Source: Chlamydiota bacterium (GTDB lineage Bacteria; Chlamydiota; Chlamydiia; Chlamydiales; Rhabdochlamydiaceae). From it: DNA of 64,000 nucleotides. How positions within the stretch are numbered: the first letter of the stretch is position 1; the number at the start of each line of letters is the position of its first letter. The stretch lies in contig JABDDH010000001.1 in assembly GCA_013287705.1 (NCBI GenBank), positions 359 through 64,358 on the forward strand. The letters are read 5' to 3'. The notes below the pieces were generated by a model. That model did not search any database and had not been told where the DNA came from. It saw only the letters and a program-made list of their open reading frames with translations. The position numbers were made by a program, and so were the translations under genes. Below are positions 6,971-59,960 of this stretch, in pieces.

Positions 6971-7349
6971 CTTCTCTATGAAGCACGACGCACAATTTAT
7001 TTTAAATCTGATTGCTCAAGCGATTTTTGACAAGAAGGGGATGAACATCCTTGCTCTTGATCTGCGCAACGTCTCGACAATTACTGACTACATGATTATT
7101 GCTGAAGGAGCTGTCGATCGGCATCTTGTTGCGATTGCCCACTCCATTGAAAAGAGCCTTGAAGAGGTCGGAGAGAAGCCGGTGCGTATTGAAGGACTTG
7201 CAGAAGGCGACTGGATCGTGCTTGATTACCTAGAAGTGATGGTCCATCTCTTTGCTCCTGGCTTGCGCGAAAGGTATCAGCTTGAGCAGCTCTGGAAAGA
7301 GGGCAAGCTTGTCGAATTAAATATTTCTTTAGATCCTATTCAACACTAA
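6957..7349 (+). CDS. rsfS: Ribosomal silencing factor RsfS (iojap family)
   Basis: 130 aa directly after nadD. Family-typical DYMIIAEG ... GDWIVLDYLEVMVHLF. Confidence 0.85.
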   Translation: MSYTSFSMKHDAQFILNLIAQAIFDKKGMNILALDLRNVSTITDYMIIAEGAVDRHLVAIAHSIEKSLEEVGEKPVRIEGLAEGDWIVLDYLEVMVHLFAPGLRERYQLEQLWKEGKLVELNISLDPIQH

Positions 7350-7403
7350 AATTTTAGCTTGAGTTGTCAAAAAAGGGTTGATTTGGTATGCTTGTCTCAC
7401 TTT

Positions 7404-8666
7404 ATGAATAAAAAACGTATTGTCGTCACAGGAATGGGCCTTGTCTCTTGTTTTGGGAGTGATATCAATCACTTCTACCAGCAGCTTTTGGCTGGAAAGA
7501 GTGGAGTACGCCCTATTGCTGGATTTCCTTGTGAAGAATTTCCGACGCGCTTTGCAGCAGCGGTCGATCAGTTTAACCCAGATGGTTATCTAGATAAAAA
7601 ACAGGCGCGTCGCGTCGATCCTTTTATCTGCTATACTGTTGTTGCAGGCAAAAGAGCTTTAGAGATGGGCGGCCTGACTGGCGAGGCGTTTGATCGTCTA
7701 GATAAAGAGCGTTGTGGGATTTTAATTGGCTCTGGGATGGGTGGAATGAATGTTTTTTATGAAGGGGTTGAGACGCTGCTTCATAAGGGGCATAAGCGTC
7801 TGACGCCGTTTTTTGTTCCCTACATCATTACAAACATGGGCGGAGCGCTTCTAGGAATCGAGCTCGGTTTCCGCGGTCCTAACTACTCTATCTCTACTGC
7901 GTGTGCAACCGCTAACTACTGTATTGCAGCGGCTGCAAATCACATTCGCAACGGCCATGCCGATCTCATGTTATGCGGCGGTGCAGAGTCTGCGATCAAT
8001 CCGATTGGTCTTGCAGGTTTTGTTGCTATTAAGGCGCTTTCTGAGAGAAATGAGGCACCGGAACAGGCTTCACGTCCATGGGATCAGGCCCGAGATGGTT
8101 TTGTGATGGGAGAGGGGGCAGGAGTTCTTCTGCTCGAGAGTTTAGAGTCAGCTCTTGCGCGTGGCGCTCCGATCTATGCGGAGTATTTGGGTGGTGCAAT
8201 TAATTGCGACGCGCATCACATGACAGATCCACGGGCTGATGGGCTTGGCGTCAGTAGCTGTATTGAAGAGGCGATTAAGGATGCTGGCATTGATAAGAGT
8301 CAGATTAATTATATCAATGCGCATGCGACATCAACACCTGCTGGCGATCTGTGTGAGTTTCAGGCGCTGCAGAATGTTTTTGGAGAGGGGCTCTCTTCAA
8401 TTGCGATGAATGCTACAAAGTCGATGATTGGTCACTGTTTGGGTGCAGCTGGCGGTATTGAAGCGATTGCGACGGTTATGGCCATCCAAACAGGAATGCT
8501 TCACCCGACAATTAATAGTGAGAACCTTGAGCCTGCAGTTGCAGGTGTAAATATTGTTTCGAGCGTTGCCGCTCCCTGTCAGGTAAGAGCCGCGCTTTCT
8601 AATTCATTTGGATTTGGTGGTCATAACTCTTCTTTGATTTTTGCTCCTTACTTGAGTGCAGGATAG
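7404..8666 (+). CDS. fabF: 3-oxoacyl-[ACP] synthase II
   Basis: KRIVVTGMGLVS start, active-site region ISTACATANYCI, HATSTPAGD and GHCLGAAG motifs. ATG 7404 is preferred over the longer track ORF. The stop TAG (8664-8666) lies in the terminus of repeat A1. Confidence 0.93.
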   Translation: MNKKRIVVTGMGLVSCFGSDINHFYQQLLAGKSGVRPIAGFPCEEFPTRFAAAVDQFNPDGYLDKKQARRVDPFICYTVVAGKRALEMGGLTGEAFDRLDKERCGILIGSGMGGMNVFYEGVETLLHKGHKRLTPFFVPYIITNMGGALLGIELGFRGPNYSISTACATANYCIAAAANHIRNGHADLMLCGGAESAINPIGLAGFVAIKALSERNEAPEQASRPWDQARDGFVMGEGAGVLLLESLESALARGAPIYAEYLGGAINCDAHHMTDPRADGLGVSSCIEEAIKDAGIDKSQINYINAHATSTPAGDLCEFQALQNVFGEGLSSIAMNATKSMIGHCLGAAGGIEAIATVMAIQTGMLHPTINSENLEPAVAGVNIVSSVAAPCQVRAALSNSFGFGGHNSSLIFAPYLSAG

Positions 8667-8846
8667 ACCTCTTGCGTCAGTAGCTTTGCTTGAAAAATTC
8701 GGAGATTTTCTCTCGGATTTTTAGAAACTGCAAGCAGTTTCGTGTCGAGCGAAGGCGACGACTCCAGGGAGTCGACAACTGAGTAAGATAAAAAACTGCG
8801 AGAAAAGAACGAATTTAGCAAGTAAATGTAATGACGTAAGAGGTCT
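8664..8846. repeat. Family A long palindromic element, copy A1 (about 183 nt)
   Basis: Termini are tagacctcttgcgtca ... tgacgtaagaggtct (inverted). Internal arms are also complementary (attttctctcgg / cgagaaaag, gaaactgc / gcagtttc, cgactcc / ggagtcg). It aligns along its length with copies at 9341 and 10900 and fills the whole fabF-nudix spacer. Confidence 0.85.
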
Positions 8847-8847
8847 G

Positions 8848-9270
8848 ATGATCCTTCAAGATGAATCTTTTGGTGTAATTCCTTTAAAAAAAGAGAATTC
8901 TCTCTGGAAGGTTTTTTTAATTTTACACAAGTCAGGTCACCATTGGGGCTTTCCTAAGGGACATAAGAATATAAATGAGTCGTCACAAGAAGCGGCAGAG
9001 CGTGAACTAAAAGAAGAGACAGGGCTGCATGTTGTGGAATGGCTTTCAGAAAAACCTCTTGTAGAGACGTACCGGTTTCGGATTAAACAGCAGATGGTGC
9101 AAAAGCATGTCCTTTTTTTTCCGGCGCTTGTAGCGGGCGAACTTTTGTTGCAAGAAGAGGAAATTCGTGAAGGTAAGTGGGTGACCTTTGAAGAAGCCAC
9201 CGAGACTCTTACCTTTAAAGAGGCGAAATTACTGATCAAAGAAGTCTCTCAACTGTTGAATCTCTCTTAA
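8848..9270 (+). CDS. NUDIX hydrolase
   Basis: Nudix box GFPKGHKNINESSQEAAERELKEETGL (GX5EX7REUXEEXGU). Confidence 0.85.
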   Translation: MILQDESFGVIPLKKENSLWKVFLILHKSGHHWGFPKGHKNINESSQEAAERELKEETGLHVVEWLSEKPLVETYRFRIKQQMVQKHVLFFPALVAGELLLQEEEIREGKWVTFEEATETLTFKEAKLLIKEVSQLLNLS

Positions 9271-9554
9271 TAGACTTCTTTCGAAATTCGCTTTGTTTAG
9301 AAAAATTTGGCGCCGCAGATTCCAAAAAAGGCAATTTTAATAGACATCTTGCGCAACCTGCTTTGTTTGAAAAATTCGGAGATTTTCTCTCGGCTTTTTA
9401 GAAACAGCTTGGAGTTTCGCATCGCGCGAGGGAGCCGACTCTTCAGCGTCGGCAAGTGAGCAAGATAAAAAGCCGTGAGAAAAGAACGAATTTGGCAAAC
9501 AAATGAGGTTGCGCAAGAGGTCTAATAAACAAATGGAATTTTGAAAGAAGTCTA
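9271..9554. repeat. Composite repeat: a diverged family A-like element carrying a nested full copy (A2)
   Basis: The outer termini are tagacttctttcgaaattc (9271-9289) and gaattttgaaagaagtcta (9536-9554), inverted with 1 mismatch. The outer left arm resembles the family A left arm (gctttgtttagaaaaattt). A complete A copy lies inside. Confidence 0.7.
9341..9524. repeat. Family A long palindromic element, copy A2 (184 nt)
   Basis: tagacatcttgcgcaacct ... aggttgcgcaagaggtcta form a 19-nt inverted terminus with 1 mismatch. The internal sequence is colinear with A1. Confidence 0.85.
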
Positions 9555-9556
9555 TT

Positions 9557-10300
9557 ATGTCTAAACTTGATTATTTGAAACATTCTCTTCTCGGGATGCC
9601 GCCACAAATCGAGCTTTTTGTGCGCCATTGTCACTATTCAGCGATTAGTCAGCATAAAAATCGCTTGCCCGGTTTTGATCGTAAAAAATGTTATGAGAAT
9701 CTTCTTAAGACAGTGGATCTGAAACGTGTCCGCATCACATTTTTGCTCGACACCTTTCATCCTCTGGATCATGAGCACTTCATTATGCAGCAAAAGAAGT
9801 TTCCAGTTATTCAGACAAGACAGGGGAGCGAAACAGGATCTTTTCTTTTTTTACTCGACCACGTTATAGCCCAAAAATTTTACCCCGACACAATTATTTA
9901 CTTGCTTGAAGATGATTATCTGCATCGAGAAGGGTGGGTGGATGTTCTCTTAGAAGCGTTTGAGCTTCCAGTTGACTACGTGACGCTCTTTGATCATCGC
10001 GACAAGTACACAGCATCTAGCTATAAGGATTTACAAGCCCGGTTGTATCAGACACATTCTTGTCACTTTCGCACAACGCCATCGACAACAAACACATTTG
10101 CTGCGCGCTATAAGACATTGCAAAAAGATGCGCCGATTCATCGCGCCTATTCTGAAAATCGGACAATCACAGCCGATCATGAAAAATTTTGCCATTTACA
10201 ACGGGAGGGGGCGACTCTAATCTCCTCTATTCCAGGCTGGTCTACCCATGTAGAGCAGGAATTTACATCCCCCTGTTTTAGCTGGGAATCTCTTCTTTAA
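9557..10300 (+). CDS. Hypothetical protein, possibly a GT-A-fold nucleotide-sugar transferase-like enzyme
   Basis: 247-aa ORF. The EDDY (DxD-like) motif and the LFDHRDKY segment recall uncharacterised glycosyltransferase-like proteins. This assignment is from memory only. The gene is flanked by family A repeats. Confidence 0.35.
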   Translation: MSKLDYLKHSLLGMPPQIELFVRHCHYSAISQHKNRLPGFDRKKCYENLLKTVDLKRVRITFLLDTFHPLDHEHFIMQQKKFPVIQTRQGSETGSFLFLLDHVIAQKFYPDTIIYLLEDDYLHREGWVDVLLEAFELPVDYVTLFDHRDKYTASSYKDLQARLYQTHSCHFRTTPSTTNTFAARYKTLQKDAPIHRAYSENRTITADHEKFCHLQREGATLISSIPGWSTHVEQEFTSPCFSWESLL

Positions 10301-10835: not shown

Positions 10836-10899
10836 AGATACTATACGTATTCTATTTTGGGTATAATTGTCAATTGCGGTATAGTTGATTTTTTTACAA

Positions 10900-11018
10900 T
10901 AGACGTCTTGCGGAACCTGCTTTGTTTGAAAAATTCGAAGATTTTCTTAGCTGTTTTTAGAAACCGCTGACAGTTTCGTATTGCGCGAGGGCAAGTGAGC
11001 AAGATAAAAAGCTGCGAG
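10900..11018. repeat. Family A palindromic element, copy A3 (right end truncated, central sub-hairpin deleted)
   Basis: tagacgtcttgcggaacctgctttgtttgaaaaattcgaag... is colinear with A1/A2 as far as ...gataaaaagctgcgag. It ends 8 nt before the aas ATG. Confidence 0.8.
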
Positions 11019-11026
11019 TCGGAGTT

Positions 11027-13684
11027 ATGCTAAAGCAAAGGGTGCGCAAGGCGCTAGAGAGCCCCATTTTTTGGATTGCCAGGGCCGTCGCCTCTTTGCG
11101 CTATCGTCTTCACGTTACAGGGCTAGAGCATCTGACGCCGGAAACTTTAGCGCGTGGAGGGGGAACTCTTTTTTTGCCAAACCATCCAGCAGAGCTCGAT
11201 CCATGTCTTTTGCTGCTGGTTCTTTTCCCCCAATTTCGCCCAAGACCTTTAGTTGTCTCCCACTTTTTTTATCTCAAGGGAGTACGCTTTTTTATGGATC
11301 TGGTCCATGCGCTTCCTCTGCCCAATATGGATACATTTGCAAGTAGATGGAAGATCAAGCAGATGGATCTTCTTTTTACCACCGTCTCTTCCGCGTTAAA
11401 GAGAGGAGAAAATTTTTTGATTTATCCAGCCGGGAAGTTGAAGATGGGCGAAGCAGAGCGGGTGGGTGGATCCTCTTTTGTCCATAGTCTGCTCAAAGAG
11501 TGTCCCTCTGCAAATGTTGTTGTGGTGCGCACGACAGGTCTTTGGGGTAGCAGGTTTTCACGCGCGCTAACAGGAGAGGTCCCCAATTTTGGCAAGACAT
11601 TATGGGAAGGATTTAAAATTATTTGTAAAAATGGCTTTTTTTTTACTCCGCGCCGCCATGTTTATATCGATCTTTCTCCAGCGCCGAGCGATTTCCCTTT
11701 TTCTGGAACACGCCTAGAGTGCAATCAGTATTTAGAAAACTTTTATAACCGTTATCCGGATCGATTAAAACTTGTCTCATTCTATTTTTGGAAAGAGAAG
11801 TTCCCGTCTGTTGCGACAGAGGGAGAGGTGCATAAGTTTTTTGGAGAAGGTAAGGTGCCACAGAGCGTTGAAAAAGAGGTCTTTGCAAAACTCTCGGCAC
11901 TCTCGGGGCGTCCCGCGCCCCTAATTAATGCGCGCATGGAGCTCGCTTCAGACTTAGGTCTTGATTCTCTTGATCTCTCTGGGCTCTATATTTTTTTAGA
12001 GGAGAAGTATCATGTTGGGCAGCTGCAGCTGGGACAGCTCCGTTTTGTAGATGATCTATTGCAGATCGCGTCCGGCTACAAAAAGGGGATTGTTGTCTCA
12101 AATCAGCGAGAAAAGAGCTTTTCGTGGAAAGAAGAAAAAAACAGACCCTCTCCTCATATTGCAGATAGCCGAACATTACAAGAGGCTTTTTTACTCTCTT
12201 GCGAGCGGATGGGTTCTTTTACCGCGTGTGCCGATAGTAGTTCGGGGACCTTTTCGTATCGCACATTTAAAATGGCAGCGATCACTTTATCGCTCTATTT
12301 AAAAAAAGAGAAGAGCCCCTATATTGGCATTCTTCTCCCTGCATCTTGTGGCGCTTATCTCACAATTTTTGCCACTCTTCTTGCGCGCAAAACTCCTGTG
12401 ATGCTCAACTGGACAACGGGGGTGCGCTCTCTTGAGCATGCCCAATCTATCGCTCAATTTTCCTCTGTTATTACCTCTTGCCGTTTTTTAGAGCGCGTTG
12501 AAACAGCAGATTTTGGTGCTATAGAAAATTCGTTTCAATTTTTAGAAGAGATTAGCAGGAGTCTCTCTGTTTTTGAAAAAATCAAAGGTTTTTTCCTCTC
12601 TTTTTATTCGACAAAACAGCTGATGCGACGCTTGAGAGTAGAAGATCTACAAGCAGATGATCCGACCCTTATCCTTTTTACAAGCGGAACAGAATCGCTA
12701 CCAAAAGCTGTTCCTCTAACCCATCAGAACCTCTTGTCGAATTTGCGCTCAGCGCTTTCTTGTATTCCGCTCAGAGCGGATGATGTGTTGTATGGCGTTT
12801 TGCCTCCGTTTCACTCATTTGGTTTTTCTGTAACGGGAATTTTCCCTATACTCGCAGGTCTGAAAGTCTACTATGCCCCGGATCCAACAGATGCGTATCA
12901 AATGTCGCATGATATTCGCGAAGCTCACGTTACTTTGTTATGTCTGGCACCGAGTTTCATGCGCAGTCTGTTGCGCGTTGCAGATAAACGAGACTTATAT
13001 TCAGTTGCCTATTTTGTTGCAGGCGCTGAGAAAGCAGGCGTTGAGCTATACGATGCGATCAGACAACTTGGCAGTGGCAAGCGATTATTAGAAGGGTATG
13101 GAATTACAGAATGTTCACCCATTGTCACCTGGTCGCGGCTACATCTACCGGCAAAAGGTGTGGGGCAGCCCTTGCCTAACGTCGAACTTGCAATTCTTGA
13201 TACGGAATCTGGACAATTTTTACCAGTAGGCTCTGAGGGAGAAGTGTTGATTTGTGGGCCAAATGTCTTTAATGGCTATCTTGGCAAGACCCAAGACTCT
13301 TTCTTTGAGCATGAAGGCAAGAGATGGTACCGTTCTGGAGATCGAGGGCGTCTGGATCTCGACGGAAGTCTTATCCTTACAGGGAGGCTCAAGCGCTTTG
13401 TAAAAATTGGGGGAGAGATGATCTCTTTGTCCGGAATCGAAGAAGATCTGACACTTGGAATGGGTCAAGAGAAAACTTTTGCCCTCATCGCAAAAGAAGA
13501 TCTTGAAAAACCGCTTCTGATTCTTTTTTCTGAAATCCCCTTAAACAGAGAAGAGCTGAATCTCTTGTTAAGAGAGCGCGGCTATGGACAGATTATAAAA
13601 ATTTCTGAAGTGCGTACGTTGAGTGAGATCCCGCGCATGGCAACAGGAAAGATCAATTATCGACAACTGGAAGAACTATGCTAA
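11027..13684 (+). CDS. aas: Aas-type fusion: lysophospholipid acyltransferase, carrier-like segment and acyl-ACP/AMP-forming synthetase
   Basis: PlsC-type HX4D motif (NHPAELD) at the N-terminus, LGLDSLDL (phosphopantetheine-site-like) near aa 310, an AMP-binding motif LILFTSGTESLPKAV and a C-terminal GEMISL/ATGKI. Confidence 0.85.
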   Translation: MLKQRVRKALESPIFWIARAVASLRYRLHVTGLEHLTPETLARGGGTLFLPNHPAELDPCLLLLVLFPQFRPRPLVVSHFFYLKGVRFFMDLVHALPLPNMDTFASRWKIKQMDLLFTTVSSALKRGENFLIYPAGKLKMGEAERVGGSSFVHSLLKECPSANVVVVRTTGLWGSRFSRALTGEVPNFGKTLWEGFKIICKNGFFFTPRRHVYIDLSPAPSDFPFSGTRLECNQYLENFYNRYPDRLKLVSFYFWKEKFPSVATEGEVHKFFGEGKVPQSVEKEVFAKLSALSGRPAPLINARMELASDLGLDSLDLSGLYIFLEEKYHVGQLQLGQLRFVDDLLQIASGYKKGIVVSNQREKSFSWKEEKNRPSPHIADSRTLQEAFLLSCERMGSFTACADSSSGTFSYRTFKMAAITLSLYLKKEKSPYIGILLPASCGAYLTIFATLLARKTPVMLNWTTGVRSLEHAQSIAQFSSVITSCRFLERVETADFGAIENSFQFLEEISRSLSVFEKIKGFFLSFYSTKQLMRRLRVEDLQADDPTLILFTSGTESLPKAVPLTHQNLLSNLRSALSCIPLRADDVLYGVLPPFHSFGFSVTGIFPILAGLKVYYAPDPTDAYQMSHDIREAHVTLLCLAPSFMRSLLRVADKRDLYSVAYFVAGAEKAGVELYDAIRQLGSGKRLLEGYGITECSPIVTWSRLHLPAKGVGQPLPNVELAILDTESGQFLPVGSEGEVLICGPNVFNGYLGKTQDSFFEHEGKRWYRSGDRGRLDLDGSLILTGRLKRFVKIGGEMISLSGIEEDLTLGMGQEKTFALIAKEDLEKPLLILFSEIPLNREELNLLLRERGYGQIIKISEVRTLSEIPRMATGKINYRQLEELC

Positions 13685-20642: not shown

Positions 20643-21328
20643 ATGCCAATTCCCAGCCTTTGCAGTTGGGGGTGCTTGTTGATCCAGGAAAAGCAGTCTT
20701 TACCTAAGCGCATAGGAGTATTAATACGCTTTCCTTCATAGAGAAAGGGGGTAGGTAGTGTCGCATGGCGTAGCCACTTGGCAGCTTTCATAAAAAGCTC
20801 GGTGTTGGGGAACTCGCTGGTTGCTGTGACTTTACAGAAAGCGCCGGTTTTAGGGTCTTGATAGATTTGTGGATAGGAGATTTGAAGCCCCCAAAAAACA
20901 CTCTCTTTTCCCAAAACCATCGGGTGAAATGTGGCGTCAATTTTTGAGAAGAAAAATTGATGTATCTGGAGTTGAATAATAGGCCGGATGGCACGGATAA
21001 AATAACGCTCTTCTCCAAGTTGCATGGCATAGAGAAGGTCTGCATTTTTTGTCAGGATGCTCGAAAACGCAGCGCGTGCACAAGTGATGTCCGGTAAGTT
21101 TCCTGTTTGCAGGGCGGTAATGTAGCTCTGATAAATTGTTAAAAATTTTTCTTTAGTTACTAGGGCATTTTTTTCTGAAACAATTTCACTTCCAATAAAG
21201 ATCTGTGGATCTAAGAGCGTAAGTAAGGCGTCCATCTCTTCAAGGCTTAAGAGAAGTTGATGCTTTAACCATTTAGAGACGTGCAATTTCCCTTCTAAAT
21301 CTTGGTGACTAAGCCGTGGAAGAGTCAT
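20627..21328 (-). CDS. Conserved hypothetical protein (233 aa)
   Basis: An intact ORF packed tightly between lspA and cinA, overlapping both. I recognise no motif. Confidence 0.5.
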   Translation of the reverse strand: MTLPRLSHQDLEGKLHVSKWLKHQLLLSLEEMDALLTLLDPQIFIGSEIVSEKNALVTKEKFLTIYQSYITALQTGNLPDITCARAAFSSILTKNADLLYAMQLGEERYFIRAIRPIIQLQIHQFFFSKIDATFHPMVLGKESVFWGLQISYPQIYQDPKTGAFCKVTATSEFPNTELFMKAAKWLRHATLPTPFLYEGKRINTPMRLGKDCFSWINKHPQLQRLGIGICALN

Positions 21329-21852
21329 TTTTTTCTTTTTTTGGTAAACGTTGAGTAAATCAAGATGCCTACAACCCCTAAAAATATGGCGCTATCTGCC
21401 ACATTAAAAACAGGATAGTGGTAGCTGCCAAATGAAAAGTGAAATAGGTCGATCACGTGGCCATAGATGAAAAAATCGACGATATTTCCAATGGCACCGG
21501 CACAAATCAGAGTCAAATAGAATTGTGTTTTTTTTGACAGAGGAACAAGGACCAGATAGCAGAGCAAGGCTCCGATGATAAAGACTCTGAAGTAGAGAAG
21601 GTACTCTTTCCAACTGGCAAAAAAACCCCAGGCGGCACCTGTATTAACAAGATGGTTAATCGAGAAGCTAACCCCTAAGATGTTGTGAAAAACTGGAATG
21701 CCTCCATACGGATAGATAGGGAGTGACTCTGACATTAAAGGAATTGTCTGTTGTACGTAGAATTTGGAGGCAACATCAAGGGCTAGGACAAAGAGGGCAA
21801 TTGTAGAGAGAAGAAAAAGGCGAGAAGGGGAAGGTTTGCTGAGCGTGCTCAC
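21325..21852 (-). CDS. lspA: Lipoprotein signal peptidase (SPase II)
   Basis: NTGAAWGF and FNVADSAI motifs and four TM segments. Confidence 0.9.
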   Translation of the reverse strand: MSTLSKPSPSRLFLLSTIALFVLALDVASKFYVQQTIPLMSESLPIYPYGGIPVFHNILGVSFSINHLVNTGAAWGFFASWKEYLLYFRVFIIGALLCYLVLVPLSKKTQFYLTLICAGAIGNIVDFFIYGHVIDLFHFSFGSYHYPVFNVADSAIFLGVVGILIYSTFTKKRKK

Positions 21853-21854
21853 AA

Positions 21855-22217
21855 TTACAATAGTCCTTTTTCAAGTTTTTCTTGAGCCTGGACTGTCATT
21901 GTTGCATAAGGGATCGCGTTGAGGCGTTTAATGGAAATCTCCTCGTGAGTTAAGTCGCAAATCCCATAGGTGCCCTCATTGATTTTCTCTAAAGCTCGGT
22001 CGATTTGTCTGAGAACGGAATACTCTTTACTTGTCACTTCTAGGCTAATTGTTCTCACAAAATCATCGGTTCCTTCGTCAGCTTGATGTTGGGAGTAGCC
22101 TTTAGAAGCGTCTGCTTTGACATCTTCTGCTGTGACGCGCACAGTTTGAGTGAGTTGGGCTTTTAGATCTTCTAAGCGTTTTTTGAATGTTGCGACTTCT
22201 TCTTTGCTAAGCGTCAT
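21855..22217 (-). CDS. dksA: DksA/TraR-family protein with a degenerate zinc finger
   Basis: A coiled-coil N-terminus containing DEGTDD, and a C-terminal GTYGICDLTHEEISIKRLNAIPYATMTVQAQ. Only one of the four canonical Cys residues is present. Confidence 0.75.
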   Translation of the reverse strand: MTLSKEEVATFKKRLEDLKAQLTQTVRVTAEDVKADASKGYSQHQADEGTDDFVRTISLEVTSKEYSVLRQIDRALEKINEGTYGICDLTHEEISIKRLNAIPYATMTVQAQEKLEKGLL

Positions 22218-22276
22218 GCTAAGTGTCCTTTAAGTTAAAGCTTCTGCTTTGGGTTGTGCTTCAGTTTTGGGCTGTT

Positions 22277-22440
22277 TATACCCAAAAAACTTGAAAAATT
22301 GGGTCTCTATGGCGTCAGTTTTGTCTCACAATTTGTATTCTCACTCGCGCCTTGCCTTTCGGCAATGGTCGCTCCCTTCGAATTCACATTCTGAGCCACT
22401 TCCTTGCAGAGCTCCCAATTTTTCAAATTATTTGGGTATA
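22277..22440. repeat. Family B long palindromic element, copy B1 (164 nt)
   Basis: Arms tatacccaaaaaacttgaaaaattgggtctct (22277-22308) and agagctcccaatttttcaaattatttgggtata (22408-22440) are inverted. The core ctcgcgccttgcctttcggcaatggtc is shared with B2. It overlaps the 3' end of nrdR. Confidence 0.8.
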
Positions 22441-22867
22441 GTGCATCCATCAATTCATCGACATCCTTGAATCTGCGATAGACGCAGGCAAAGCGGATAT
22501 AGGCAATCATATCCAGTTCGCGCAGTTGCTTCATCACAATCTCTCCGAGGGTGACAGTTGGAATTTCACGCACCTGTGTTTCTAATAGATCAGCGCTGAT
22601 TTTATAAGCAAGGGATCTTACCTGGTCGTGAGAAATGCGGGTATGTCTACAGGCGGCCTCTAGACCTTTAATCAACTTTTCTTGTTGAAAGTCTTCGTAG
22701 GTGCCATCTCTTTTTTGGACTTGAATTGTCAGATCGACCATTTCAAAAGTGGTAAACCTGCGCAAACATTGAAGGCATTCTCTACGACGTCTAACAGCAT
22801 TAGCTTCTGCTGCATTGCGGGAATCTGTGACTTTCGACTCTTCAAAACTACAAAAAGGACAACGCAT
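22307..22867 (-). CDS. nrdR: Transcriptional repressor NrdR with a repeat-encoded C-terminal extension
   Basis: MRCPFCSFEESKVTDSR zinc ribbon and an ATP-cone ending ...YIRFACVYRRFKDVDELMDAL. The start is ATG 22865-22867; the track ORF reaching 22975 runs through tRNA-Ser. The last 43 codons lie inside repeat B1. Confidence 0.9.
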   Translation of the reverse strand: MRCPFCSFEESKVTDSRNAAEANAVRRRRECLQCLRRFTTFEMVDLTIQVQKRDGTYEDFQQEKLIKGLEAACRHTRISHDQVRSLAYKISADLLETQVREIPTVTLGEIVMKQLRELDMIAYIRFACVYRRFKDVDELMDALYPNNLKNWELCKEVAQNVNSKGATIAERQGASENTNCETKLTP

Positions 22868-22886
22868 ATAAATAGACTCTTTAAGA

Positions 22887-22973
22887 CGGAGGAGGTGGGA
22901 TTCGAACCCACGAAACGTTTTCACGTTTACACACTTTCCAGGCGTGCTCCATCGGCCACTCGGACACTCCTCC
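22887..22973 (-). tRNA. tRNA-Ser (anticodon GGA)
   Basis: Minus-strand read: GGAGGAG-TG-TCCGAGTGGCCGATGGA-G-CACGC-CTGGAAA-GTGTG-long variable arm-GTGGG-TTCGAAT-CCCAC-CTCCTCC-G. A cloverleaf with a long extra arm. No CCA is encoded. Confidence 0.9.
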
Positions 22974-23035
22974 ATAGGATTTGGAGAACGAGCCTACCCA
23001 AAGAGGCATATATATCACAAGAGAAAACTCTTAAA

Positions 23036-25054: not shown

Positions 25055-25107
25055 AGAGTTGTTATCTTGAAAGTCGAGAGTAAGTTAGAAGAAAAAGAAT
25101 ATAGAAA

Positions 25108-25287
25108 GCTCGGTTTTGTAATTTTTGTGACCGAAGGCCTCGAGATGTTTGTTTTCGGTACTGTTTATTGTCTTGGGGAGGAGTTAAAAAACTCCTTTTG
25201 AGAAAATAAACAGTAAGTTTGGCCTATGGCCAAACGACCAAGAGCAAACAGACGAGGCTGGCGGGCTCAAAAATTGCAAAGTCGAGC
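25108..25287. repeat. Family C long palindromic element, copy C1, inside the 16S-23S spacer (180 nt, with a sub-hairpin)
   Basis: gctcggttttgtaatttttgtgaccgaaggcctcgagatgtttgttttcggt ... gaccaagagcaaacagacgaggctggcgggctcaaaaattgcaaagtcgagc. It is colinear with C2 at 59747-59890. It also carries an extra internal palindrome, actgtttatt..ggaggagttaaaaaactcc..aataaacagt. Confidence 0.85.
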
Positions 25288-25443
25288 GTAAGATTCAAAG
25301 TATTTTCAAATGGTAACAAACGAAAGTTTGTACACATTTTCACTGATAGAAGATGGCGTTTGAGGAGAAATAATCTTCACATTAAAAATATTAGGTTAAG
25401 TAAGCGAATGTAAGCTTAAGGAAGCGCACATAAAACATTATGT

Positions 25444-32173: not shown

Positions 32174-32238
32174 GCTTTTTTTCATACGGTCCCGGAGGGA
32201 GAGCTGGGCCGCTTTGAATCTTTTTTATATTCAAAATA

Positions 32239-32399
32239 ATACCATTTGCAGAAAATAATTGCATATTTGACTATGTCAGCTTGGCAACAAATTTTTTGTC
32301 TTTGCTCGCGCCTTGCCTTATGGCAATGGTCACTTGCTCCAGCCAAAAAATTTGTGCCGCCTCCTTGTCAAATATGCAATTATTTCCTACAAATGGTAT
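32239..32399. repeat. Family B long palindromic element, copy B2 (161 nt)
   Basis: Arms ataccatttgcagaaaataattgcatatttgac and gtcaaatatgcaattatttcctacaaatggtat match at 31/33 as an inverted repeat. The inner arm is ggcaacaaatttttt / aaaaaatttgtgcc. The core ctcgcgccttgccttatggcaatggtc is shared with B1. It lies between convergent euo and recJ. Confidence 0.85.
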
Positions 32400-32403
32400 A
32401 ATT

Positions 32404-34143
32404 TCAGTCAGCTGTTTTTGGTTTTTGGAAATCTCGAATATGGAGCTGAATGCTCGATTTATTCAGAAAATTATTGATGTGCGGTGTAAAGGCCAATTGC
32501 AGAGGAAGATGAGGTTGGCAGATTTCGGGCCGCCTGTGGGCCATCCCAAAACCGATCCCTTCTAAGGCGCGTTCATTCTCTTCTAGATAAAATTTCAGAT
32601 GTAATTTGCCGACTACTTTTGGGCTCCAGGTCTGCATCGCTCTGCTATATAGGACGGGGGCTGGATTTTCATTGCCAAAGGGTTCTAATAGGCTCAGGGA
32701 TTCCATGAAATCAAAGGTTAAATCTTGAAAATTGACCTCAGCATCTAGGTGTAATTTAGTGAGAAGATCCAGGGCTTTGAGTTGATCTGCCGCAGCTGCA
32801 AGAAATTTTTCCTTGAATTTGGAGATCTCTTCTTGTTTGATTGTAAGACCTGCCGCGAAGTCATGACCTCCAAAATTGAGTAAAAGATCGCTATTTTCTC
32901 GAAATATAGGAAGCAAAGGGAACTCTGGAATTGTACGGGCAGACCCTTTCCCGATACCGTGTTCAATTGCGATGATAATTGTAGGGCGATTATACTGCTT
33001 AGCAATGCGGGCTGCAATAATGGCAATAATACCTGGGTGCCATTTATCCGAGGCTAGGATAATAGCGCTCTCTTTGAGAATTTCAGGAGATTGAGAAAGA
33101 AGCTGTTCGACCTCTTCAGAGTCTCTTCTTTCGATCCTTTGTCTTTCAATATTATTTAAATCTAGGTCTTTGGCAAGAGCTTCAGCTTCTATTGGATCGC
33201 GGAGTAAAAGTAGTTCTACCCCCTTTTTAGGGTCATCAATCCTTCCCAGAGAGTTTAGACGCGGCGCAATTTTTGAGGAGATCTCCATAGGAGTGATCTC
33301 TGTTTTAATTTCACTGATGCTAAAGAGCTTTGAAAGCCCGATGCGTCTTGTTTTTTTTAGTTGTTTGAGGCCATATCGAACAAGGATCCGATTCTCTCCT
33401 CGTAGAGCCCCCATATCAGCGACAGTCCCTAAGGCAACTAGATCTAGATACCGTTTGAGATCGACCTTAGAGGGAGGCATCTCACCATCTGCAATCAGTT
33501 GATTTGTGATTGCGTGGGCGAGTTTGAAAGCAACGCCGACGCCTGTAAGGTCTCTGTTTGGGTAGCTACTGTTTTTTAATTTGGGATTGAGAGTGGCAAT
33601 ACAATGGGGTAATTTGTCTGTTGGCTCATGGTGATCTGTCACGATGACATCGATATGGCGTTTTGCTGCAGCCGCGGTCTCTTGAGCTGAGTTGATCCCA
33701 CAGTCAACGGTAATGAGAAGAGAGCAAGAAGCTGCTGCTGCGTAATCCAGTGCATCGAGAATCAGACTCTGTTTCAAAGATGTTCGATTGGGGATATAGA
33801 AATCGACAGAGGCGCCAATATAGTCTAAAAATTCTGTTAAAAGTGCAGTTCCTGTAATTCCATCGACATCATTATCGCCATAAATCAAGATTTTTTCTTT
33901 GAGGTGTAAAGCCTGCAGGATGCGTGTTACTGCTTTATCCATATCTTCAAATAAATAGGGGTCGAGTAGGTCGGGTAATTTGGCGTATAGGTAGTGATGG
34001 ATTTCATCTAGAGTTGTAAACCCGCGGGCGACAAGAATTTGTGCAGTTACTGGATGGATGTGAAATTCTTCAACAATTGCTTGATGCCAGATTGGATCGA
34101 TTCTTGGATACACCCAAAGAGGGTCGTGTGTTGTATGACGCAC
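32404..34143 (-). CDS. recJ: Single-stranded-DNA-specific exonuclease RecJ
   Basis: DHH motifs (IYGDNDVDGITG, VTDHH, GGHDFAAG). Confidence 0.93.
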   Translation of the reverse strand: MRHTTHDPLWVYPRIDPIWHQAIVEEFHIHPVTAQILVARGFTTLDEIHHYLYAKLPDLLDPYLFEDMDKAVTRILQALHLKEKILIYGDNDVDGITGTALLTEFLDYIGASVDFYIPNRTSLKQSLILDALDYAAAASCSLLITVDCGINSAQETAAAAKRHIDVIVTDHHEPTDKLPHCIATLNPKLKNSSYPNRDLTGVGVAFKLAHAITNQLIADGEMPPSKVDLKRYLDLVALGTVADMGALRGENRILVRYGLKQLKKTRRIGLSKLFSISEIKTEITPMEISSKIAPRLNSLGRIDDPKKGVELLLLRDPIEAEALAKDLDLNNIERQRIERRDSEEVEQLLSQSPEILKESAIILASDKWHPGIIAIIAARIAKQYNRPTIIIAIEHGIGKGSARTIPEFPLLPIFRENSDLLLNFGGHDFAAGLTIKQEEISKFKEKFLAAAADQLKALDLLTKLHLDAEVNFQDLTFDFMESLSLLEPFGNENPAPVLYSRAMQTWSPKVVGKLHLKFYLEENERALEGIGFGMAHRRPEICQPHLPLQLAFTPHINNFLNKSSIQLHIRDFQKPKTAD

Positions 34144-34293: not shown

Positions 34294-34474
34294 CTAGTAC
34301 CCGAACACATTAGTTTTTGTGGGTAATTTTGGCGTCAAAACCCGCACAATCGACGATCGTAAATTGCTTCGTATTAAATTAATACGGAGCAATTTATGAA
34401 GCCTGCGGTCGATCGATTCTGCGGAGCTTTCACGTTCAAAATTACCCACAAAAACTAATGTGTTCGGGTACTAG
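34294..34474. repeat. Palindromic element D (181 nt; 37-bp perfect terminal inverted repeat)
   Basis: 34294-34330 ctagtacccgaacacattagtttttgtgggtaatttt is the exact reverse complement of 34438-34474. The interior is also self-complementary (ccgcacaatcgacgatcg / cgatcgattctgcgg; aaattgcttcgtattaa / ttaatacggagcaattt). The secDF stop TAG is the terminal CTAG. Confidence 0.9.
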
Positions 34475-42988: not shown

Positions 42989-43064
42989 CTAGTACTCAGT
43001 CAATATTGAAATTGCAGCTTTCGCGCTAGCACAATCCGCAATTTCAATGTTGACTGAGCACTAG
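42989..43064. repeat. Palindromic element E (76 nt), with CTAGTAC termini like element D
   Basis: ctagtactcagtcaatattgaaattgc (42989-43015) and gcaatttcaatgttgactgagcactag (43038-43064) match at 25/27 as an inverted repeat. The stop TAG of the minus-strand transporter gene is the terminal CTAG. Confidence 0.8.
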
Positions 43065-58620: not shown

Positions 58621-59736
58621 TTAGATTCTTTTGAGTACAGCGCCGAAAAAGCCATCCATGCCTCTCTCTGTGGGAATGGATTGAAATGGTTCTTTAACAA
58701 GAGACAAGGAAAATTTTTCTTGGAAATAGGCAGTCTGTTCCTGATTTTCTTGAGGCAGTAAGCTGCATGTTGCGTAGATAATTGTCCCTTTTTGTTTTAA
58801 AAAAGAGAGCGCCTCTTCGAAGATCCGCCGCTGTTCTTCAATCAGGTTAGGAAGAGCTTCTTTGTTAAATTTCCATTTCATATCAGGATTGCGCCGCAAT
58901 GTGCCAGAACCCGTACACGGGACATCGACAAAGACCCAGTCCATTTTTCCGCGCAGCCGCTTTTTTTTCGGGTCATCATAGTGAAGAAGTTGGCAATTTT
59001 GAACGCCGGCTCTGCGTAGCCTTTTTTTTGCTTCTTCCAGCGCTCTTGGACGGATGTCGTGGAGATAGATTTGGCCGCCTCGCGTCTGTGGAGCAAAGGC
59101 AAGGGTTTTGCCTCCGGCGCCTGCGCAGAAATCTAAAATTTGGTCTCCCTCTTTTGGTTCGAGTAGATTTGCAACTAGCTGACTTGCTTCATCTTGAACT
59201 TCAAAAAGACCTTCTTTAAACTCATCCATAGCAAAAAAATTGGCTCTTTTCTCTAGGTGGATTCCTGTAGGAGATAGGTGGCAGGCTTGCGCCCCATAAA
59301 CTCCCTTCCACAAAGCAAGAAGAGCTTCTCGATCTGTTTTGAGCTCGTTTGCGCGGAGTGTGAGTGGAGCCTGAGTGTTGCTGACTCTGCAGATCTCAAG
59401 AGCTTGTTCCTCGGGATACGCCGTAGTTAACAGTTCAAATAATTGCTTGGGGAAGCTGACGCGAATATGTGGAGGAACCCGGTCTAAGGGATAATCAGAG
59501 AGGTTAAGGTAAACTTGAAGCCTGCTCTCCCAAGAGACGGGTTTTGTAGCTAAATGATCGATGAGGCCGCGCATGCGGACCATTCCATAGACTGTTTCGC
59601 TAATCCAGCGCCGGTCTTGTGCTCCAACTGATTTGTGTGTCCGGAAGTAGTGGCTTAAAAAAAGATCTAGAGGCCCTTTGTGAGTCTCAAAAAGGGTGAA
59701 AATTGCGACGAGATGGTGTGTGCGAAATGGATTCAT
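58621..59736 (-). CDS. rsmB: 16S rRNA m5C methyltransferase (RsmB/Sun family)
   Basis: DFCAGAGGKT, VDVPCTGSGTLRRNPD and IIYATCSLLPQEN motifs. Confidence 0.88.
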   Translation of the reverse strand: MNPFRTHHLVAIFTLFETHKGPLDLFLSHYFRTHKSVGAQDRRWISETVYGMVRMRGLIDHLATKPVSWESRLQVYLNLSDYPLDRVPPHIRVSFPKQLFELLTTAYPEEQALEICRVSNTQAPLTLRANELKTDREALLALWKGVYGAQACHLSPTGIHLEKRANFFAMDEFKEGLFEVQDEASQLVANLLEPKEGDQILDFCAGAGGKTLAFAPQTRGGQIYLHDIRPRALEEAKKRLRRAGVQNCQLLHYDDPKKKRLRGKMDWVFVDVPCTGSGTLRRNPDMKWKFNKEALPNLIEEQRRIFEEALSFLKQKGTIIYATCSLLPQENQEQTAYFQEKFSLSLVKEPFQSIPTERGMDGFFGAVLKRI

Positions 59737-59746
59737 TCGGGTAGTA

Positions 59747-59890
59747 TCTCGACTTTGTAACTTTTTGGGACCGAAGGCCTCGAGATATTTGTTCTTGGCT
59801 TAGAAAATAAATCAGCGAGTTTGGCCATAGGCCAAACGGCCAAGAGCAAATAGACGAGGCAGGCGGTCCCAAAAAGTTGCAAAGTCGAGA
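59747..59890. repeat. Family C long palindromic element, copy C2 (144 nt)
   Basis: Arms tctcgactttgtaactttttgggaccg (59747-59773) and cggtcccaaaaagttgcaaagtcgaga (59864-59890) match at 26/27 as an inverted repeat. Inner arms are aggcctcgagatatttgttcttggc / gccaagagcaaatagacgaggc. The tip is gtttggcc-ata-ggccaaac. It lies in the divergent rsmB-doxX spacer. Confidence 0.88.
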
Positions 59891-59960
59891 GTATAACAGA
59901 ATGCTGGTTTTTTGTAGTGATTTTGTTTATGATAAATTTTTATTTAAATAGGGGGGTGGT

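Follow-up and report, generated by a model that had tools for sequence, protein, structure and literature searches.

A palindromic MITE encodes the C-terminal tail of NrdR in a Rhabdochlamydiaceae bacterium

In the 64,000-nt stretch of DNA that was analysed, hereafter the window, the last 43 codons of nrdR and its stop codon lie within a palindromic element. The element is an RPE-like, TA-duplicating MITE and does not appear to belong to the families of Rickettsia palindromic elements (RPEs). We consider it highly probable that a MITE inserted at a TA in nrdR, that the repeat came to be read in frame as a new C-terminal tail, and that this tail is a passenger. The features of the locus, together with one diverged relative of the element elsewhere in the window, are as follows.

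21325-21852, minus strand: lspA, downstream of the dksA/traR-type gene
21855-22217, minus strand: dksA/traR-type zinc-finger gene, downstream of nrdR
22235-22276, minus strand: probable remnant of the original 3' terminus of nrdR, frame NSPKLKHNPKQKL* (asterisk, stop) after excision of 162 nt
22277-22440, minus strand: palindromic MITE-like element of 164 nt, TATA to TATA (inverted repeat, family alignment, nhmmer E = 3e-38)
22277-22303, plus strand: terminal inverted repeat, dksA side
22414-22440, minus strand: terminal inverted repeat, nrdR side, encoding (L)YPNNLKNW
22307-22867, minus strand: nrdR coding sequence, ATG at 22867-22865 and TAG at 22309-22307, 186 aa
22310-22438, minus strand: NrdR tail, codons 144-186, YPNNLKNWELCKEVAQNVNSKGATIAERQGASENTNCETKLTP, all within the element, with homology to the peptide that other copies (L027, P0167) encode in this frame
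22439-22867, minus strand: NrdR-homologous core, codons 1-143 (orthologue alignment A1; PDB alignments stop at 139-141; last predicted helix 136-143)
22885-22974, minus strand: tRNA-Ser(GGA), directly upstream of nrdR, and also upstream at the sister locus L001
32234-32404, no strand assigned: diverged family relative (nhmmer E = 3.8e-17, model positions 19-145, match 32237-32401)

The first-pass annotation of this DNA had placed the end of the NrdR match at ...DELMDAL, and profile and structure alignments agree. The NCBIfam equivalog TIGR00244 aligns profile positions 1-144 of 147 with residues 1-143 at 157.9 bits, for a cut-off of 124.65 bits, and five distinct solved NrdR sequences (PDB chains) align to residues 1-139/141. 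Pfam assigns Zn_ribbon_NrdR (PF22811) to residues 1-42 over the full profile length and ATP-cone (PF03477) to residues 48-135. The two CxxC pairs (C3, C6, C31 and C34) are invariant in the orthologue alignment, and the core retains every invariant residue of the 20 sequences aligned. The proposal that the repeat has not destroyed NrdR is upheld by this intact Zn-ribbon and ATP-cone core, which scores above the equivalog cut-off. The synteny tRNA-Ser-nrdR-dksA-lspA is intact as well, and the order nrdR-dksA-lspA is common to relatives with and without the insertion.

The element proper comprises 160 bp (22279-22438) and has a duplicated TA target on either side, at 22277-22278 and 22439-22440. 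On the nrdR side, this boundary TA supplies positions 2-3 of the Leu143 codon CTA (22441-22439). The extension starts exactly at this boundary, as had been claimed, with Tyr144-Pro145 encoded by TAC CCA of the repeat, and the frame continues for 43 codons (YPNN...KLTP) to the TAG at 22309-22307. This stop lies inside the element (22277-22440), 30 nt from its dksA-side end, also in accordance with the earlier reading. End A of the element (GGGAG/AATTTG..CAAGG) faces nrdR. The inverted repeat arms are 27 nt each and complementary at 25 of the 27 positions, and none of 100 shuffles of the window gave any match for them. The 164 nt fold as a single long hairpin with -68 kcal/mol (z = -8.5). The nrdR element has no match in Rfam, and neither a promoter- or terminator-like site nor a terminator-like T-run was found between 21800 and 23100.

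One point of the earlier reading is corrected: at three or fewer mismatches to the terminus, the nrdR element is the sole copy in the window. A profile search retrieves one diverged relative at 32234-32404. The relative shares the internal core of the nrdR element, has other termini (TACCATTTG.AG.AAATAATTGCA; alignment A4), and is intergenic, beginning right behind the recJ stop.

We also note further palindromes in the window. Those at 34294-34474 (181 nt, perfect 38-nt arms) and 42989-43064 (76 nt) have CTAG ends of the form CTA/GTACCC...GGGTAC/TAG, and each abuts the stop of a long ORF (1515 and 732 codons, respectively), the TAG being rebuilt from the duplicated TA and the first G of the element. 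At their termini (GTACCCGAACA) they are similar to the nrdR element, whose ends are given as TACCCAAAC...GGG and, where they are set beside these palindromes, as TACCCAAACA. Another palindromic family is present in two copies (25100-25290 and 59734-59903) that are 82-89% identical over blocks of 37-71 nt; one of the two is situated in the 16S-23S spacer (16S end 24966, 23S start 25444). A palindromic repeat of ~190 nt occurs three times, at 8662-8855, 9268-9557 and 10898-11090, and some of its copies extend across the beginning of long ORFs (907 and 251 codons). In the second of these, a ~190-nt copy at 9336-9529 is nested in an inverted-repeat pair at 9268-9299/9526-9557, an arrangement suggestive of one element having inserted into another.

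The termini of the nrdR element recur in other genomes. A 23-nt terminus pattern, CCCAAANAANNTGAAAAATTGGG, was scanned against one genome per species (GTDB contigs) and returned 36 loci. About 30 of them belong to 13 assemblies, mostly of Rhabdochlamydiaceae, and have TATA in front of the terminus in almost every case; the other six are located in unrelated taxa, are without TATA, and look like chance matches. The 13 carrier assemblies are labelled as Rhabdochlamydia, Rhabdochlamydiaceae, Chlamydiae/Chlamydiia or as "Verrucomicrobiae" MAGs of ~2 Mb. Pairing of termini gave 22 full-length copies, 92-221 nt long, in the GTDB contigs, and a metagenome scan added 25 loci with eight further distinct full-length copies (11 loci). 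In total, the 13 assemblies and the metagenomes hold more than 40 copies of 72-221 nt, in all of which the terminal inverted repeats are conserved and none of which encloses a transposase gene. Compensatory double changes are found in 22 of the 58 hairpin pairs (11 copies), and it is therefore the palindrome itself that is maintained. By these alignments, the palindrome at nrdR is a member of a real repeat family, a TA-duplicating MITE. No transposase ORF was found beside four solo termini, and no terminus pairs ~1-2 kb apart that enclose a transposase were found among the GTDB and metagenome loci matched.

A length rule, by which the length minus 2 is divisible by 3, described seven of the eight GTDB length classes and was abandoned, as it is broken by metagenome copies of 163, 165, 166, 72 and 84 nt; it holds, trivially, only for copies inside ORFs. 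Dozens of "hypothetical proteins" of 42-99 aa in public annotations (P0121-P0161) are translated stand-alone copies of the repeat, and P0162 (120 aa) corresponds to two tandem copies. The chlamydial repeat is also carried by closed MAGs of ~2.0-2.3 Mb labelled as "uncultured Verrucomicrobiae" (OY970179.1, OY970364.1, CAWDYW01), at loci L004, L006, L009, L012, L021, L031, L034 and L037. The flanks of L037 match the window at 66-69% identity. These labels may be wrong.

The target duplication was defined from the flanks and from copies within coding sequence. TA is present at both ends of nearly every copy. Comparison of 20 flanks outside the TATA ends revealed no duplication and no target preference beyond TA; the duplicated target therefore lies within TATA. 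Excision in silico from two carriers establishes that the duplicated target is TA. In higB of Candidatus Rhabdochlamydia sp. JOPF242 (L020), which contains a 176-nt copy, the HigB-like_toxin match stops at profile position 76 of 91 with 72.2 bits, and removal of 174 nt yields ...RIVFKWENG... and a match over positions 2-91 of 91 with 86.5 bits. The SpoU methylase P0167 has its domain in two stretches (108.1 bits) when the element is present and in a single stretch (3-142 of 142, 121.1 bits) when 54 residues are removed. We note that the higB copy, at 2946-3122 of L020, forms 58 in-frame codons between ...INDQWRIVF and KWENG....

It had been asked whether other copies lie in frame within genes, and both translations of the raw DNA and a protein search show that they do. 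An ankyrin-repeat protein (L018) has a copy within an open frame, with 544 codons before and 338 after it, and in-frame copies are also observed in a family-2 glycosyltransferase (L027) and in a signal peptide/FKBP protein (L012). Three copies supply the last codons and the stop of a gene, as in nrdR (L044, L022 and L029), and two supply the first codons (L037 and L063). When the 44-aa window tail was run exhaustively with phmmer against 1.84 billion representative proteins, 63 of them were retrieved at E ≤ 1e-3, almost all of which match positions 1-43. About 20 of the 63 are at least 170 aa long, with the peptide beside or splitting real domains. The peptide is embedded in SpoU, in MnmE (where it separates the G domain from the helical domain), in a chorismate-binding enzyme and in a shikimate-dehydrogenase-like protein, and it is N-terminal in OMP decarboxylase, an ABC transporter and a methyltransferase. 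A word-indexed search with the element-peptide alignment scored 150 candidates, returned short ORFs alone and missed P0001, and for this reason it does not serve as a census.

The origin of the NrdR tail in the repeat, as first proposed, is confirmed by the alignment of the window copy, which matches the 164-nt subfamily over its whole length and has 74% identity to the L027 copy in a gap-free alignment. In the region of the tail stop, the window sequence ...KLTP*RPNFSSFLGI corresponds to ...KPTRSKTNFSSCLGI in L027. The in-element TAG is specific to the window copy, other 164-nt copies carrying a sense codon there. Because the same reading phase is open in these other copies, the TAG is a later substitution in this one.

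Orthologues place the end of homology at the same point. In the 20-sequence alignment that had been proposed as a check, element-free orthologues end 4-31 residues past the core with short, unrelated tails (AIxxIxPK...), and have lengths of 147-174 aa; the matches listed are 147-187 aa long, P0058 and P0002 apart. P0058 is longer through an N-terminal extension. The first-pass annotation had named a homologous tail in repeat-free orthologues as a result that would speak against it; none was seen among those aligned, and the only orthologue with such a tail, P0002, has the repeat at the same site. P0002, from a sister metagenomic lineage, is 228 aa long, with a core 91% identical to that of the window and the same junction (AL, then YPNNMKNWEF). 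Its contig, L001 (JGI Ga0364907_10239), bears a 92-nt copy at the identical TA, followed by a partial second copy, and the nrdR flanks of L001 and the window are 78-82% identical. We observe that the 228-aa nrdR ORF reads through both copies (1091-1262 of L001) and that its stop overlaps codons 4-5 of dksA. The identity of the site points to a single insertion in the common ancestor of the window and sister lineages as the most likely history; the sequences do not establish that the two copies are most closely related to each other. A BLAST comparison of flanks with loci in search of an empty site gave one orthologous pair, L037 and window positions ~7000-7750, which at 66-69% identity is too diverged for a junction.

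The claim that the repeat has taken the place of the native 3' end and stop of nrdR is supported by a probable relic of that end downstream of the element. Canonical excision of 162 nt produces ...DELMDAL-NSPKLKHNPKQKL*, a protein of 156 aa, which is within the normal length range, and implies an empty site of the form ...GATGCAC-TA-AACAGCCC.... The three excision models give ...DALNSPKLKHNPKQKL* for a duplication of TA, ...DAQQPKTEAQPKAEALT* for no duplication and ...DAL* for a duplication of TATA; the TA model is the one validated in the other carriers. An alternative open frame at 22230-22280, YKQPKTEAQPKAEALT*, is used in the sister lineage (YKQ...EALT) and resembles orthologue tails (APKVEAQETLS) at least as well as NSPKLKHNPKQKL does. 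Two candidate frames, NSPKLKHNPKQKL and YKQPKTEAQPKAEALT*, can thus be put forward for the native tail, one of which would require later indels.

The structure of the tail was predicted, as had been suggested, by AlphaFold2 with the orthologue alignment. The ATP-cone has a pLDDT of ~90 and the last helix spans residues 136-143, while residues 148-186 remain below 50. The tails of the two lineages differ in length (43 aa in the window, 85 aa in the sister lineage), in sequence and in the stop, and their first 22 residues are ~59% identical, in contrast to 91% for the core. Since length and stop differ between the lineages, the tail seems to be a passenger; it looks like a tolerated, unstructured addition at an insertion-permissive site, and both the pLDDT and the length variation are consistent with neutrality.

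In the mechanism that we propose, a 160-bp non-autonomous palindromic MITE with terminal inverted repeats of 25-27 nt would have inserted at the TA formed by positions 2-3 of the Leu143 codon, directly behind the last ATP-cone helix, where the conservation of NrdR orthologues stops. Element and duplicated TA together amount to 162 nt, or 54 codons, and the frame was not shifted, because the element is open in this phase. The peptide YPNNLKNWEF... would have been joined to an intact Zn-ribbon and ATP-cone core. A later substitution created the in-element TAG, such that translation now terminates once 43 residues have been read from the repeat, and the codons and stop that originally closed the gene would have been left downstream as non-coding DNA. 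The insertion is most likely older than the split from the sister lineage (Ga0364907_10239), in which rearranged copies at the same TA are read through to another stop. The element would persist at nrdR because the position tolerates insertions. IS630/Tc1-mariner transposases typically duplicate a TA target, as do Correia elements, and the duplication at the chlamydial copies suggests mobilisation in trans by a transposase of the IS630/Tc1-mariner type.

Some alternatives concern how the element came to nrdR. Independent insertions at the same TA in the window and sister lineages, of which only those at the tolerated spot survive, would accommodate the difference between one 164-nt copy and a 92-nt copy with a partial second one, as well as the L001 copy, which seems nearer to the family consensus than the window copy. 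The junction, however, is identical to the nucleotide, the 20 flanks disclose no preference beyond TA, and a genome of ~2 Mb holds only tens of copies; we regard such a coincidence as unlikely. An artefact, be it mis-assembly over the repeat, a sequencing error hiding a stop, or a pseudogenised nrdR, would have to be considered for a metagenome-type contig, in which repeats can yield chimeric joins. It is extremely unlikely here, in view of flanks that are syntenic with relatives on both sides, an independent assembly with an insertion at the same site, and an intact core ORF with all invariant residues and a score above the equivalog cut-off.

Other alternatives concern what the element does. 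The very stable hairpin, with pairing conserved through covariation, and its position between two co-oriented genes are what would be expected if it acted mainly as an RNA or DNA hairpin (stabiliser, attenuator or terminator) between nrdR and dksA, the coding effect being incidental. The needs of transposition would equally yield covariation, copies are found in every kind of context, and the locus has no T-run, promoter-like site or Rfam match, all of which make this role quite unlikely. The tail could, on the other hand, have been exapted as a selected functional extension of NrdR that alters, for example, oligomerisation or partner binding. The insertion has been kept in both lineages, between which nrdR DNA identity is only ~80%, in an intact gene with the tail open for 43 and 85 codons. 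We nevertheless judge exaptation to be very unlikely: length, sequence and stop of the tail diverge between the lineages (its first 22 residues far more than the core), the predicted tail lacks confident structure, the same peptide is present in dozens of unrelated proteins, and its sequence is constrained by a palindromy that is kept for non-protein reasons. Insertion of a MITE with a tolerated, passenger tail is thus the explanation that we prefer.

Two sources (PMC10969869, PMC3733652) summarise the RPEs of Rickettsia (RPE-1 to RPE-10; Ogata et al. 2000/2002), with their in-frame insertions in many metabolic genes, and the former describes general features of MITEs. The chlamydial elements share with RPEs a palindromic organisation of ~100-170 bp, an obligate intracellular host, in-frame placement in unrelated housekeeping genes, and the addition of a conserved peptide that leaves the host domains intact. 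They differ in that the host belongs to Chlamydiota rather than Alphaproteobacteria, in their clear 27-nt terminal inverted repeats and TA target duplication, in the many copies that are intergenic or at gene ends, and in the element peptides, which have no NCBIfam or Pfam match at E ≤ 10 (RPE models may be absent from these collections). The RPE-like behaviour that had been put forward for the nrdR element stands as far as in-frame copies in many genes are concerned; the likeness is behavioural only, and no sequence similarity to RPEs was detected.

Among TA-duplicating bacterial MITEs are the Correia elements of Neisseria and the IS630-derived MITEs. The chlamydial elements are similar to these in being small, multi-copy and devoid of a transposase, with TATA... 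terminal inverted repeats, TA duplication and in-frame fusion with ORFs. The chlamydial terminus sequence is unrelated to theirs, in contrast, and the hosts are Rhabdochlamydiaceae and relatives; the promoters and IHF sites by which Correia elements have regulatory roles were not seen at the nrdR element. Compared with the canonical NrdR of E. coli and Streptomyces coelicolor (PDB 9gex, 9fxk, 7p37), the window protein has the same Zn-ribbon and ATP-cone, fully conserved over residues 1-143, and differs in the 43-residue repeat-derived C-terminal tail that stands in place of the short native one. A literature search that was thin on subscription journals returned no description of repeats resembling MITEs or RPEs in Rhabdochlamydiaceae or Chlamydiae, and one may have been published before. 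The Rhabdochlamydia genomics papers found describe IS expansion and no such repeats.

In a wider and more tentative view, Rhabdochlamydiaceae may possibly be host to an undescribed system of palindromic MITEs that targets TA and has colonised coding sequence on the scale of RPEs, convergently in a second obligate-intracellular phylum, with some segments, the NrdR tail perhaps among them, recruited as functional linkers or tails. The copies map, in nature, the sites at which conserved proteins such as NrdR, SpoU, MnmE and HigB tolerate insertions. The repeats also inflate and extend the gene calls of chlamydial MAGs, and annotation and pseudogene counts need to mask them. So far, the colonisation of genes in frame by repeats of this palindromic kind has been treated as a peculiarity of Rickettsia, and Chlamydiota represent a second, unrelated case, in which the demonstrable TA duplication ties the phenomenon to ordinary MITE transposition. 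This second case suggests that the intracellular lifestyle, with its small populations and relaxed selection, favours in-frame colonisation.
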